A stretch of 49,246 nt of DNA from a virus (Duplodnaviria; Heunggongvirae; Uroviricota; Caudoviricetes), in IMG/VR virus record IMGVR_UViG_637000105_000003. The stretch is one strand, 5' to 3'. Shown piece by piece: positions 24,525 through 28,111 of the stretch. Made by a program: the position numbers and the translations under genes. Within the stretch, counting starts at the first letter, position 1. The number at the start of each line of letters is the position of its first letter. Under the pieces are notes generated by a model. That model worked only from the letters and a program-made list of their open reading frames with translations. It did not search any database and was not told the origin of the DNA.

Positions 24525-25021
24525 TGCCTCCATCATTACGAAAAGCCGTTGCTGCTGCTATTGGTGGCGGAGCAATTGCTATAGCATCAGTGTTAATCAC
24601 TGGCCCAAGTGGTAACGATGGTCTGGAAGGTGTCAGCTACATACCATACAAAGATATTGTTGGTGTATGGACTGTATGTCACGGGCATACAGGAAAAGAC
24701 ATCATGCTCGGTAAAACGTATACCAAAGCAGAATGCAAAGCCCTCCTGAATAAAGACCTTGCCACGGTCGCCAGACAAATTAACCCGTACATCAAAGTCG
24801 ATATACCGGAAACAATGCGCGGCGCTCTTTACTCATTCGTTTACAACGTGGGTGCTGGCAATTTCAGAACATCGACGCTTCTTCGCAAAATAAACCAGGG
24901 CGATATCAAAGGCGCATGTGATCAGCTACGTCGCTGGACATATGCTGGCGGTAAGCAATGGAAAGGTCTCATGACTCGTCGTGAGATTGAGCGTGAAATC
25001 TGTTTGTGGGGTCAGCAATGA
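24524..25021 (+). CDS. R: SAR endolysin (lysozyme, phage 21 R-type)
   Basis: N-terminal Gly/Ala-rich signal-anchor-release segment [18 protein letters not shown] followed by lysozyme domain. Confidence 0.85.
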
Positions 25022-25479
25022 ACAGAGTAACCGCGATTATCTCCGCTCTGGTTATCTGCATCATCGTCTGCCTGTCATGGGCTGTTAATCATTACCGTGA
25101 TAACGCCATTACCTACAAAGCCCAGCGCGACAAAAATGCCAGAGAACTGACGCTGGCGAACGCGGCAATTACTGACATACAGATGCGTCAGCGTGATGTT
25201 GCTGCGCTCGATGCAAAATACACGAAGGAGTTAGCTGATGCGAAAGCTGAAAATGATGCTCTGCGTGATGATGTTGCCGCTGGTCGTCGTCGGTTGCACA
25301 TCAAAGCAGTCTGTCAGTCAGTGCGTGAAGCCACCACCGCCTCCGGCGTGGATAATGCAGCCTCCCCCCGACTGGCAGACACCGCTGAACGGGATTATTT
25401 CACCCTCAGAGAGAGGCTGATCACTATGCAAAAACAACTGGAAGGAACCCAGAAGTATATTAATGAGCAGTGCAGATAG
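25018..25479 (+). CDS. Rz: Rz i-spanin
   Basis: N-terminal TM then coiled-coil; embedded Rz1 in +1 frame. Confidence 0.8.
25238..25420 (+). CDS. Rz1: Rz1 o-spanin lipoprotein (embedded in Rz)
   Basis: Lipobox LVVVGC and proline-rich mature region [15 protein letters not shown]. Confidence 0.75.
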
Positions 25480-25510
25480 AGCTGCCCATATCGATGGGCA
25501 ACTCATGCAA

Positions 25511-25804
25511 TTATTGTGAGCAATACACACGCGCTTCCAGCGGAGTATAAATGCCTAAAGTAATAAAACCGAGCAATCCATTTACGAATGTTTGCTGGGT
25601 TTCTGTTTTAACAACATTTTCTGCACCACCACAAATTTTTGCTGCATCGACAGTTTTCTTCTGCCCAATTCCCGAAACGAAGAAATGATGGGTGATGGTT
25701 TCCTTTGGTGTTACTGCTGTAGGTTTGTTTCCAACAGTAAACGTCTGTTGAGCACATCCTGTAATAAGCATTGCCAGAGCGGCAGAAAACAACATTTTTT
25801 TCAT
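25511..25804 (-). CDS. bor: Bor serum-resistance lipoprotein
   Basis: MKKMLFSAALAMLITGCAQQ... lambda Bor-like by recollection; lipobox. Confidence 0.85.
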   Translation of the reverse strand: MKKMLFSAALAMLITGCAQQTFTVGNKPTAVTPKETITHHFFVSGIGQKKTVDAAKICGGAENVVKTETQQTFVNGLLGFITLGIYTPLEARVYCSQ

Positions 25805-26284
25805 CTTATTATCCTGCATTGTTAAAAACGGCAGAATCCTATGTGACAACAATTAAACGATAGTTAAATGGATTGATGAAAATTAAAACTACACAGGTGG
25901 GCTCAGACTATTGGAGGAAGTTGGGGACACTCAGAATCCTGTGGAATGAAATAAACCGGTCTATCCGTCCATTACCCTTTTAGCTGCGCTGTATCGTCGC
26001 CGTATTCCCGCATTAACCATGACCGTAGCCCGACGGGGAATTCCTTCTGCGTGAGTGTGCGGGAATAATTAAAAACGATGCACACCGGGTTTTTACCGCG
26101 TTAATGATTCGCGGGTTTATCCCGGTGCGATGGTGGAAGAAACAGGAAGCTGTATTACAGAAAGTGCTACTACTGTATCCCGATGCGATGTATGTAATGT
26201 GAGTCAGATAATGGCACAGGATGTGGTGATGTGGCAGTCTGGAACACAGGATATATTGTCAGAATAAGACCCGTAGGAATAAAA

Positions 26285-26611
26285 ATGAAAAGACGCCTTT
26301 TACTACTTTTTCTGTTATCTGTCCTGGCAGTGGGATGCTCGCAGCAAAAAGCTGATGAGCCCCGGCAATTAGTGACGGTGTATCCACGATATCCGGAATA
26401 TGCTGCAGCAAATTATATCAAGGGGCTGGTTGAGGTTAAGTTCGATATTGGTGCTGATGGGACTGTGACACGGATCGTTTTTCTCCGCTCAGAGCCTCAT
26501 AATTTGTTTCGTGATGAAGTGGTGAAGGCCATGGCGAAATGGCGATTTGAAAAGAATCGCCCCTGTCAGGGAGTGAAGAGACAATTTATCTTTACGCCGT
26601 CACGTCCTTGA
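26285..26611 (+). CDS. Lipoprotein with TonB C-terminal-like domain (108 aa)
   Basis: Lipobox LAVGCSQQ; YP...Y..A...G.EG.V.VKF.I..DG.V motif pattern resembling TonB_C. Confidence 0.6.
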   Translation: MKRRLLLLFLLSVLAVGCSQQKADEPRQLVTVYPRYPEYAAANYIKGLVEVKFDIGADGTVTRIVFLRSEPHNLFRDEVVKAMAKWRFEKNRPCQGVKRQFIFTPSRP

Positions 26612-26974
26612 TGCTTCCAGGTAGAGAGGGGCTGGAAGCAGGAGAAAAATGAAAGAGCCAGCGGTTATATTTTTGTCATGGCTGACGAGGAATGATGGAA
26701 GAAGGCGTTGTATGCCACACAACGCCTCACTGTTCATTTCTTCTTTTTCTCTGGTGGAACCCGATGAATAAGAGTTGCACTGGTTTCCGATGAGATGGCG
26801 ATATACTCGGGCAAAGTATGCTGGCAGTTTTCCAACTGGTCAAAAATACCTGCTCTCGTCTGTTGCAATGCCTGCAGCATGCGGCGGCAATGCGCCTTGC
26901 TTTTACTAACCATCTTTCCTTCCTCTATCAGTCGCTGCGTGAACTCATCATGGAATACCAGGTAAATGCGGATG

Positions 26975-27226
26975 TTATCGGTTTTGGCTACGCAGCATAG
27001 TACAAAACGGACAGGTGCATCCCGGGACGGGGGAGGCGTCACATGTCCCTGTGATGGTTGTTCCGGGTAATGTACTGTGTGGGGCATAAAAATGTCCGAT
27101 AATTTTACTTTCTACCGCAGTTAGTTGATTCGTTGGTCCTGGTAGCACATTGGGCGAGGATTTAAATGCCAGGCAACTGAAGGATGATGTCGCAAGGGAG
27201 ATAGCGAGAATATTTCTGATTTTCAT
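26975..27226 (-). CDS. Hypothetical small secreted Cys-rich protein (~83 aa)
   Basis: Signal-peptide-like N-terminus MKIRNILAISLATSSFSCLA; overlapping alternative ORFs make this uncertain. Confidence 0.3.
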   Translation of the reverse strand: MKIRNILAISLATSSFSCLAFKSSPNVLPGPTNQLTAVESKIIGHFYAPHSTLPGTTITGTCDASPVPGCTCPFCTMLRSQNR

Positions 27227-27374
27227 TTGATGATGCCTCTGTGTGAAATGACGGTAAACGACGCACTTGTGCCGGCACATAATAGCAAGCACCATAATAG
27301 ATCAGATTCGATTCTTGCTGTAAGTGATAATTATTCTCGTTTTCGGGTCCTTTCCGTCGATCCAACAGGTTACG

Positions 27375-27386
27375 GGGCGGCGACCT
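27375..27386. other. cosN cohesive-end site (GGGCGGCGACCT) with cosB region extending to Nu1
   Basis: Exact lambda 12-nt cohesive end followed by CGCGGTTTTTCACTATTTATGAAAATTTT, ~180 bp upstream of Nu1. Confidence 0.8.
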
Positions 27387-27562
27387 CGCGGTTTTTCACT
27401 ATTTATGAAAATTTTTCAGGGAAAATCGTGTCGGTACTTCTCGAATATAACTTTTTGTTTTTTTTAATATTGCATCCGTAAAGGTCCGACATGAAAGTGT
27501 CCGAAAATGCCTTTTTCTGGCGTTTTCATGTCGGGCCTTGTATTTGATAATGGGTTGTTTTC

Positions 27563-28111
27563 ATGAAGGTTAATAAAAAGAGGCTTGCCGAAATTTTCAA
27601 CGTGGACCCGCGGACGATTGAACGCTGGCAGTCTCAGGGACTCCCTTGCGCCTCCAAAGGTAGTAAGGGCATTGAATCTGTATTTGATACTGCCATGGCA
27701 ATTCAGTGGTATGCGCAGAGGGAAACTGATATCGAAAACGAAAAGCTCCGCAAAGAACTGGACGATTTGCGTGCGGCAGCGGAGTCAGATTTACAACCCG
27801 GCACCATTGACTATGAACGCTACCGGCTCACAAAAGCGCAGGCAGATGCGCAGGAACTGAAAAATGCCCGTGAAGACGGAGTAGTGCTGGAAACTGAACT
27901 GTTTACCTTCATTCTGCAACGTGTGGCACAGGAGATTTCGGGGATACTTGTGCGTGTGCCGTTGACATTACAGCGTAAATATCCGGACATTTCACCATCA
28001 CACCTTGATGTGGTGAAAACTGAAATCGCGAAAGCCTCCAATGTTGCAGCTAAGGCCGGTGAAAACGTGGGCGGGTGGATCGATGATTTCAGACGCGCAG
28101 AAGGCAGCTAA
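27563..28111 (+). CDS. Nu1: Terminase small subunit Nu1
   Basis: 182 aa, lambda Nu1-like by recollection; follows cos. Confidence 0.85.

Follow-up and report, generated by a model that had tools for sequence, protein, structure and literature searches.

Many phages, colicins, microcins and siderophore-antibiotic conjugates enter the cell through transporters that depend on TonB, and phages are known to act on one of these transporters from its periplasmic side. The small lipoproteins Llp (phage T5) and Cor (phi80, N15, HK022 and mEp167) reside in the inner leaflet of the outer membrane and mediate superinfection exclusion at the periplasmic face of FhuA, the receptor of their own phage; the surface involved overlaps the TonB site, and TonB and Llp compete for space. 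TonB is reported to be limiting relative to the transporters, and the TonB boxes of colicins are described as also having to contact TonB. Periplasmic TonB fragments are reported to inhibit transport by FecA and FhuA (Howard, Herrmann, Stratilo and Braun 2001, J Bacteriol 183:5885), and a TonB-box pentapeptide is reported to lower colicin killing and phi80 infection (Tuckman and Osburne 1992). Here, we analysed a DNA stretch of 49,246 nucleotides (nt) from the IMG/VR virus record IMGVR_UViG_637000105_000003, called the window in the following, which is a lambdoid prophage with a late region of the phage 21 type. The 1.5 kilobases (kb) from its bor/iss gene to cos hold two independent accessory genes (morons), one for a lipoprotein of 108 amino acids (aa) with a TonB C-terminal domain (TonB_C lipoprotein; 26285-26611, + strand) and one for an 83-aa protein with a signal peptide (26975-27226, - strand). 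We are very confident of the identity, the architecture and the coding status of both genes.

The TonB_C lipoprotein has the fold of the C-terminal domain of Escherichia coli TonB (PF03544; 1U07, 2GSK, 2GRX), with a root mean square deviation (rmsd) of 0.9-1.5 Å and a TM score (TM) of 0.9. The two have 41% identity over 78 residues as well as the YP motif, the Gly/Pro/aromatic core and the terminal edge strand in common; unlike TonB, the phage protein carries a lipoprotein signal peptide, ends at the position of TonB residue 235 and has both Q160 and R166 replaced. Llp and Cor are likewise small phage lipoproteins, but they have a distinct fold of their own, and the TonB_C lipoprotein shares neither sequence nor fold with them (Pfam, NCBIfam and PHROG scans; the Llp fold by its description). 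They are also specific for FhuA, whereas a protein binding TonB boxes would be receptor-agnostic. Bor/Iss, also a small outer-membrane lipoprotein that is expressed from the prophage and occupies the same lysis-to-cos slot, belongs to the unrelated family PF06291, lies on the opposite strand and has a serum-resistance phenotype. As described, the TonB fragments of Howard and colleagues represent an unenergised periplasmic TonB C-terminal region and thus the mechanism proposed below, but they are soluble, over-expressed laboratory constructs, whereas the phage protein is natural, phage-borne and predicted to be lipid-anchored, and its effect is proposed by analogy. Stand-alone TonB_C lipoproteins of Enterobacterales (for example Raoultella ornithinolytica L078, Erwinia sp. 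L080 and P0037-P0042) show the same architecture at 107-133 aa and 39-50% identity and fall into the same clade; they differ in being chromosomal and outside prophages, and are uncharacterised.

That the prophage gene encodes a TonB domain is already known in so far as it is annotated in public records, where its product is named 'TonB family protein', 'TonB C-terminal domain protein', 'TonB fragment' or 'partial tonB-like protein'. A literature search yielded no functional study of a phage TonB-domain lipoprotein, and the genome announcement of phage 21 does not mention the gene. What we add is the placement of the gene, based on sequence comparison, in a family of stand-alone TonB_C lipoproteins of predicted outer-membrane localisation, an explicit proposal for its mechanism, and a conserved gene for a putative small secreted protein, absent from three inspected records and found in six enterobacterial genera at the least.

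A complete TonB C-terminal domain on a lipoprotein signal peptide

The 108-aa open reading frame (ORF), known as CPT_21_73 in phage 21, as WP_000830178.1 and as LF82_160, is preceded by the Shine-Dalgarno element AGGA (26275-26278, + strand), which is the annotated ribosome-binding site of CPT_21_73 in phage 21. In the record of phage PhiR57_1 the gene begins at an upstream GTG (26231); similarity to a second allele from Stx1-type phages, described below, begins at 26276, which argues against this start. The protein opens with a lipoprotein signal peptide (MKRRLLLLFLLSVLAVG-C18, 26285-26338, + strand) ending in the lipobox LAVGC at residues 14-18, and its Cys18 (26336-26338) is followed by Ser-Gln-Gln, with Ser and not Asp at position +2. 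This lipobox is retained in the second allele (as LVMGC[ST]Q, at 70% identity) and in distant small homologues, and no member of the family has Asp at +2. According to the Lol sorting rule, lipoproteins without Asp at +2 are directed to the outer membrane; hence, the product of 26285-26611 is predicted from its sequence to be a lipoprotein of the outer-membrane type.

The remainder of the protein is occupied by the TonB C-terminal domain (26360-26593, + strand), in which residues 26-103 correspond to residues 153-230 of E. coli TonB in alignments to 1u07, 2gsk and 2grx. The domain was recognised by PF03544 TonB_C (E=7.3e-13, 49.2 bits against a cut-off of 24.6, residues 33-99) and by TIGR01352 (E=1.8e-12, 47.4 bits against a cut-off of 27.1), and the alignment of residues 24-103 with E. 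coli TonB 151-230 is free of gaps (E=1.4e-14 for Protein Data Bank (PDB) entry 1u07). The YP motif is formed by Y36 and P37, and Y36-P37, F53, F75, W86 and F103 align with TonB Y163-P164, F180, F202, W213 and F230, and P34, Y36, G47, V49, G59, P71, F75, W86 and P93 are invariant columns. An AlphaFold2 (AF2) model built with 16 homologues reached a predicted local distance difference test score (pLDDT) above 96 for residues 30-100. The fold is that of the TonB C-terminal domain, in which a sheet of three strands packs on two helices. Its last beta strand (residues 94-103) is the counterpart of the TonB strand that pairs with TonB boxes, and its best Foldseek matches were all TonB C-terminal domains: 1u07, 2gsk_B and 2grx_C were each hit with a probability of 1.00 at 0.9-1.5 Å rmsd, including TonB in complex with BtuB (2gsk_B, rmsd 1.0 Å, TM 0.92) and with FhuA (2grx_C, rmsd 0.9 Å). 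The 108-aa protein thus is a complete TonB C-terminal domain on a lipoprotein signal peptide, with a linker of only about 8-10 residues between Cys18 and the domain. The initial annotation, made from the sequence alone, had described a 108-aa ORF between bor and cos with a lipobox (LAVGCSQQ) and a pattern resembling the TonB C-terminal domain, and had suggested a search with PF03544. All of this is borne out: the ORF lies between bor/iss (25514-25807) and cosQ (27345-27351), the lipobox reads as given above, and the domain is found by both profiles, in the alignment to PDB sequences and in the Foldseek search on the AF2 model.

The protein has neither an N-terminal transmembrane anchor, which couples TonB to ExbB/ExbD, nor a Pro-rich spacer; its N-terminus is the signal peptide of 18 residues. 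Against the equivalog models of the TonB energy transducer (NF008080-NF008084) it scored 45-69 bits, with cut-offs of 265-448, and only about 80 C-terminal profile positions match. With anchor and spacer missing and scores so far below these cut-offs, the protein is a member of the TonB_C family and not a TonB. PADLOC models (E<=0.1) gave no match for it or for the 83-aa protein. Among predicted viral structures, BFVD contained none with the TonB C-terminal-domain fold at E<=0.001, so the fold is apparently rare among catalogued phage proteins, despite the gene being common in E. coli prophages.

The second allele (P0010, P0011 and P0015) has 67-71% identity to the protein of the window, is also 108 aa long, and was found in the Stx1a-converting phages Lys8385Vzw and JLK-2012 and in contig L004, where Rz1 likewise precedes it. 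It lies before a different packaging module (HNH, Terminase_2, TerL), and only the coding sequence (26276-26594, 74.6% nucleotide identity) is common to the 21-type and Stx1-type backbones; the shared DNA does not extend into the flanks. Of 5426 complete E. coli genomes, another 415 carry this allele, and either allele was found at 218 IMG/VR loci. Between the 21-type and Stx1-type alleles the ratio of non-synonymous to synonymous divergence (dN/dS) is 0.10, with 27/20/53 differences at the three codon positions; against diverged homologues dN/dS is 0.15-0.30. Within the 21-type clade, nine single-nucleotide polymorphisms (SNPs) in the gene are synonymous and four non-synonymous, where 24% synonymous changes are expected (p=7e-4).

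An exhaustive HMMER search returned 2795 relatives. The closest full-length ones outside E. coli (P0037, P0039-P0042, P0050, P0071, P0089 and P0117) are 107-133 aa long, most of them with a lipobox and a single TonB_C domain, and score up to 98.8 bits, compared with about 55-60 bits for genuine TonB C-termini in the same search. A neighbour-joining tree of the domain places the phage alleles inside this lipoprotein clade, at 42-50% identity, and separately from enterobacterial TonB (41%). A scan of a genome collection with a narrower alignment (A3) gave four loci. As side observations, the stand-alone lipoproteins of Raoultella (L078, L079) and Erwinia (L080) are chromosomal and 39-45% identical to the phage protein; the members in R. 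ornithinolytica, R. planticola and Erwinia sp. lie beside LacI and MlrA regulators or araBA, outside prophages. Judged by these sequence comparisons, the phage gene is selected and mobile and is not a broken tonB.

The gene is also expressed in lysogens. LF82_160, the identical gene annotated as 'TonB fragment' in the LF82 prophage, was transcribed 8-fold above the local background in uninduced LF82 cultures (PMC9928086), which makes it a moron in the operational sense. The phage of this strain, Perceval, is 99.9% identical to the window in this region.

Possible roles of the TonB_C lipoprotein

But, why should a prophage express a TonB domain that lacks the means of being energised? Without a link to ExbB/ExbD the domain would not be energisable, and as energy transduction would thus not be possible, the role that appears most likely to us is that of an unenergised competitor of TonB. 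The short linker from the lipidated Cys would hold the domain close to the outer membrane on its periplasmic side, at the very place where transporters expose their TonB boxes. There it might compete with TonB for the boxes of transporters such as FhuA, FepA, Cir and BtuB, bind those of incoming colicins, or do both. Phages of the T1/phi80 type would then adsorb irreversibly and enter less well by their TonB-dependent route, and group B colicins as well as TonB-dependent microcins would be taken up less, at some expense to the uptake of siderophores and B12. The idea that TonB-dependent receptors of phages and colicins are interfered with, raised already in the initial annotation, is plausible in that it is consistent with the predicted targeting to the outer membrane, expression in lysogens, inhibition by TonB fragments and the precedent of Llp and Cor. 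By this analogy, competition for TonB boxes may well be the main activity of the protein, though we stop short of calling it probable. That it provides measurable protection against phages or bacteriocins is more doubtful, and only tentatively do we suggest a natural 'TonB decoy' that caps the TonB boxes of many transporters and bacteriocins and thereby renders lysogens tolerant irrespective of the receptor.

Several points weigh against competition for TonB boxes. Q160 of TonB is the classical suppressor site for TonB-box mutants, and its position is taken by Tyr in the 21-type allele and by Leu in the Stx1-type allele; the position of R166, which we take to contact the FhuA plug in TonB, is Tyr in the lipoprotein. 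The receptor of phage 21 is LamB, so the gene cannot be a device for self-exclusion. A strong block of TonB would lead to iron starvation, and carriers such as Nissle 1917, ST131 and LF82-like strains rely heavily on siderophores. Upstream of the gene we found no Fur box, the best candidate matching 11/19 positions as expected from background. Finally, the chromosomal homologues in non-phage contexts suggest that the family may have a housekeeping role in the envelope.

Some of these points lead to the alternative that the fold binds another envelope partner (peptidoglycan, Lpp/OmpA or a particular outer-membrane protein) or tunes transporters or signalling, which would make the protein an envelope-stabilising or host-interaction factor like Bor/Iss. 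The gene adjoins bor/iss; its carriers include extraintestinal pathogenic (ExPEC), adherent-invasive (AIEC) and probiotic E. coli (such as ST131, the LF82-like NRG 857C and Nissle 1917), and the siderophore-dependent lineages among them argue against a strong TonB block; the Raoultella and Erwinia homologues are found in chromosomal contexts related neither to phages nor to defence; and the lipoprotein clade has a signature (YPxYAxAN, SEPxHLFD) that is unlike TonB, including the Q160 position and the presumed contact position R166. However, the protein preserves the TonB core in full together with an exposed last beta strand, the best superposition is on receptor-bound TonB, and none of our results points to a different partner, and we therefore regard this alternative as rather unlikely, if far from negligible. 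A role in the lytic cycle, as an accessory to lysis or the spanin or in protecting the progeny, is suggested by a match to phrog_1267, labelled 'Rz-like spanin' (E=5e-43), and by the location of the gene, which closes the late lysis cassette right behind S-R-Rz/Rz1 and lies on the strand of the late transcript. A complete Rz/Rz1 pair is already present upstream, though, and the protein has no C-terminal transmembrane segment, which a unimolecular spanin would require (it ends in ...FIFTPSRP), and no spanin-like periplasmic region, its fold being that of the TonB C-terminal domain. As the gene is moreover transcribed in uninduced lysogens and has chromosomal homologues without nearby lysis genes, we consider a lytic role very unlikely; the label of phrog_1267 is probably an annotation carry-over from the neighbouring lysis genes.

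Database names such as 'TonB fragment' and 'partial tonB-like protein' would fit yet another explanation, namely a non-functional remnant of a captured host tonB that hitch-hikes in the prophage. The dN/dS values of 0.10 and 0.15-0.30 and the excess of synonymous over non-synonymous SNPs (9 versus 4) speak against it, as does the preservation of both the lipobox and the length of 108 aa in two alleles on different phage backbones; the protein is also nearer to the stand-alone lipoproteins than to tonB, and its gene is transcribed. We regard a remnant as highly improbable. The annotation can thus be corrected: judged by its sequence, the protein belongs to a family of stand-alone lipoproteins and is under selection; it is neither a 'TonB fragment' nor a spanin.

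If competition for TonB boxes turned out to be the true function, phages would make use of dominant-negative inhibition, a principle hitherto described for engineered TonB fragments only, and the gene would stand for exclusion or bacteriocin tolerance of a new class that prophages bring to up to about 30% of complete E. coli genomes. A prophage gene that damps the TonB route from the periplasm in about one quarter of sequenced E. coli would affect the host range in phage therapy and the susceptibility to 'Trojan-horse' antibiotics, and also the competition by colicins and microcins in the gut; the probiotic strain Nissle 1917 carries the gene. The second accessory gene, next to such a TonB decoy, would then represent a family of small secreted conversion proteins with four cysteines that had gone unrecognised.

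The convergent 83-aa gene

On the - strand, an ORF of 106 aa begins at 27295 and contains an internal ATG at 27226, from which the 83-aa product (26975-27226) is predicted to start, with the Shine-Dalgarno element AGAGG (27236-27240, - strand) 9 nt upstream. Residues 1-20 form a signal peptide (27226-27167, - strand) with a basic start, a hydrophobic core and the small-x-small cleavage site [C/A]-[L/M]-A|F: all 17 of 17 aligned members show MK[IV]..I.A.SLA..S.. followed by [CA][LM]A|F and thus a conserved signal-peptidase-I site. The mature product would comprise 63 aa with four invariant Cys (C62, C70, C72 and C75) in the motif GxC-x3-PV-x-GC-x-C-x-FC-x-MLR. In protein searches, homologues with 40-78% identity and a length of 81-85 aa turned up in six genera, with E. 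coli TA464, Salmonella enterica subsp. salamae, indica and arizonae, Citrobacter koseri, Klebsiella quasipneumoniae, Buttiauxella and Phytobacter as hosts.

In codon alignments with three of these homologues, synonymous sites are saturated (proportion of synonymous differences, pS, 0.55-0.85), the proportion of non-synonymous differences (pN) is 0.11-0.21 and dN/dS is 0.10-0.20, with differences of 23/14/46, 18/11/51 and 22/8/54 by codon position. Conservation of the DNA runs from the Shine-Dalgarno element to the stop codon and is confined to these limits; the Salmonella, Citrobacter and E. coli-clade homologues have equally spaced, purine-rich elements resembling Shine-Dalgarno sequences, and the upstream DNA is otherwise unalignable. 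Among the 73 IMG/VR copies in which variation was counted, for this ORF and for those overlapping it, no nonsense or indel variant of the 83-aa ORF was seen. Taken together, the sequence comparisons identify 26975-27226 as a real protein-coding gene under purifying selection. The minus-strand ORF with a signal-peptide-like start and several Cys had been called uncertain in the initial annotation and now proves to be a conserved coding gene.

In the three records inspected (phage 21, RefSeq of Nissle 1917 and PhiR57_1) the 83-aa ORF is not annotated. The ORFs annotated there instead are 26649-26771 and 26818-27000 on the + strand and 26734-27087 and 27162-27365 on the - strand. One of them, a 60-aa ORF (26818-27000, + strand; WP_000881610.1, a hypothetical protein by RefSeq PGAP, CPT_21_75, phrog_3744), overlaps the 3' end of the 83-aa gene and is annotated in two of the three records; it shows no synonymous and seven non-synonymous SNPs, the nonsense variant E46* in 22 of the 73 loci and the frameshift 26897insT in two, and is probably spurious. 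Likewise probably not a gene is the 117-aa ORF of PhiR57_1 (26734-27087, - strand), whose 59-aa C-terminal part (26734-26913) is phrog_4843: five of its SNPs are synonymous and eleven non-synonymous, one locus carries E56* and three carry frameshifts (26748delT, 26897insT). For neither of the two did we find a diverged homologue.

Might, then, the 83-aa ORF have arisen by chance, with one of the overlapping ORFs (+ 26818-27000 or - 26734-27087) being the real gene? Such a reading can point to the annotation of other ORFs in the inspected records and to the SNP test, in which four synonymous and five non-synonymous changes in the nearly clonal 21-type population gave p=0.17. This test is underpowered in that population, and the coding status is settled by the diverged homologues, in which length, signal peptide and the four Cys are all preserved and synonymous sites are saturated at a pN of 0.11-0.21. 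Since conservation moreover begins at the Shine-Dalgarno element and stops exactly at the stop codon, while the competing ORFs carry nonsense and frameshift variants and lack diverged homologues, the probability of a chance ORF is close to nil. Two further ORFs of the phage 21 annotation, CPT_21_72 (45 aa, 26130-26267, + strand) and CPT_21_74 (40 aa, 26649-26771, + strand; nonsense variant E37* in two loci), both lie outside the DNA common with the Stx1-type allele of the TonB_C gene.

The function of the 83-aa protein is a guess, as its AF2 model has no confident fold (pLDDT 46) and its gene neighbours differ between genera; searches of Pfam, NCBIfam, PHROG, PADLOC and PDB sequences gave no match. 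Our best guess, held with low confidence, is a disulfide-bonded periplasmic or envelope conversion factor: the 63-aa mature protein would be exported by Sec, form two disulfides in the periplasm and act in the envelope. We also considered a lipoprotein, prompted by an 'SSFSC' motif and by the 'Lipoprotein' label of at least one UniRef entry, that of Buttiauxella noackiae. We rejected this reading, since Cys18 is replaced by Ala in distant members.

The gene occurs in other lambdoid prophages in the same Nu1-to-lysis slot, without the TonB_C gene. In Klebsiella it is accompanied by a Fur-family regulator, a cobW-like gene and an integrase, and in Phytobacter it lies between pagP and a DedA-family gene. 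An island of Salmonella enterica subsp. salamae (L082-L084, 4500-7200) has it near a PPC-domain protein, a bor homologue, an omptin, a serine protease autotransporter (SPATE) and a NEL-type E3-ligase effector, and an association with outer-membrane and virulence cargo was observed repeatedly. The homologue of C. koseri (L088, 5049-5300) sits between a gene of the lipid A acyltransferase family and icd, which we take to be the integration site of phage 21 and e14; as no phage genes are nearby, this copy suggests a moron retained after decay of its prophage.

Two further observations concern the DNA of this gene. A Fur-box-like sequence (27326-27344, - strand) matches 15/19 positions of the consensus beside cosQ, about 100 nt upstream of the gene, and has a counterpart (TGATAATAATTATC) in the related prophage L085. 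The element lies in DNA that a further lambdoid prophage has in its cos region as well. Since this upstream DNA is not found with the copies of the gene in Salmonella and Citrobacter, the element is probably unrelated to the 83-aa gene. In two variants (P0182 and P0189) residues ~47-65 are replaced by 'MPHTVHYPEQPSQGHV', the start of the overlapping 117-aa frame, before the normal C-terminus resumes, which points to paired frameshifts or assembly errors in those records.

Setting of the locus

The region 25400-27374 matches the right end of phage 21 (OL657228) at 100% identity, and the phages Perceval (from E. coli LF82), ev017 and PhiR57_1 at 99.9-100%. Its lysis genes comprise the S21 holin (24309), a signal-anchor-release (SAR) endolysin (24524) and the complete Rz/Rz1 pair (25006-25479 and 25238-25420), followed on the - strand by the bor/iss lipoprotein gene (25514-25807; Pfam Lambda_Bor, 1.7e-30), named Iss in Nissle 1917. 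Downstream of the accessory genes, cosQ (GGGTCCT, 27345-27351, + strand) was transferred from the annotation of phage 21 via the 100% identical alignment, by which the genome end of phage 21 (cosN) maps to ~27374; Nu1 (27563) and terminase A (28041) follow.

At 95% identity or more, the 1.1 kb from 26200 to 27300 are present in 1224 of the 5426 complete E. coli genomes, nearly always as a single chromosomal copy. Among the carriers are Nissle 1917, DSM 30083 (the type strain of the species), isolates of ST131 and the LF82-like NRG 857C. The TonB_C gene and the 83-aa gene are convergent neighbours that are combined only on the 21-type backbone. A functional pairing of the two was considered and rejected: as each occurs without the other, they do not form a functional unit.

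An Rfam scan of 25400-27700 gave only sub-threshold chance matches, and a promoter scan of the region found four promoter-like sites where 4.5 are expected, none of them positioned for either gene. Between 25450 and 27600 there are five terminator-like hairpins, compared with 1.9 expected from shuffled sequences, among them one at 27373-27388, which overlaps the mapped genome end (~27374), and one at 27516-27535, just before Nu1; they probably reflect the structure of the cos region rather than terminators.

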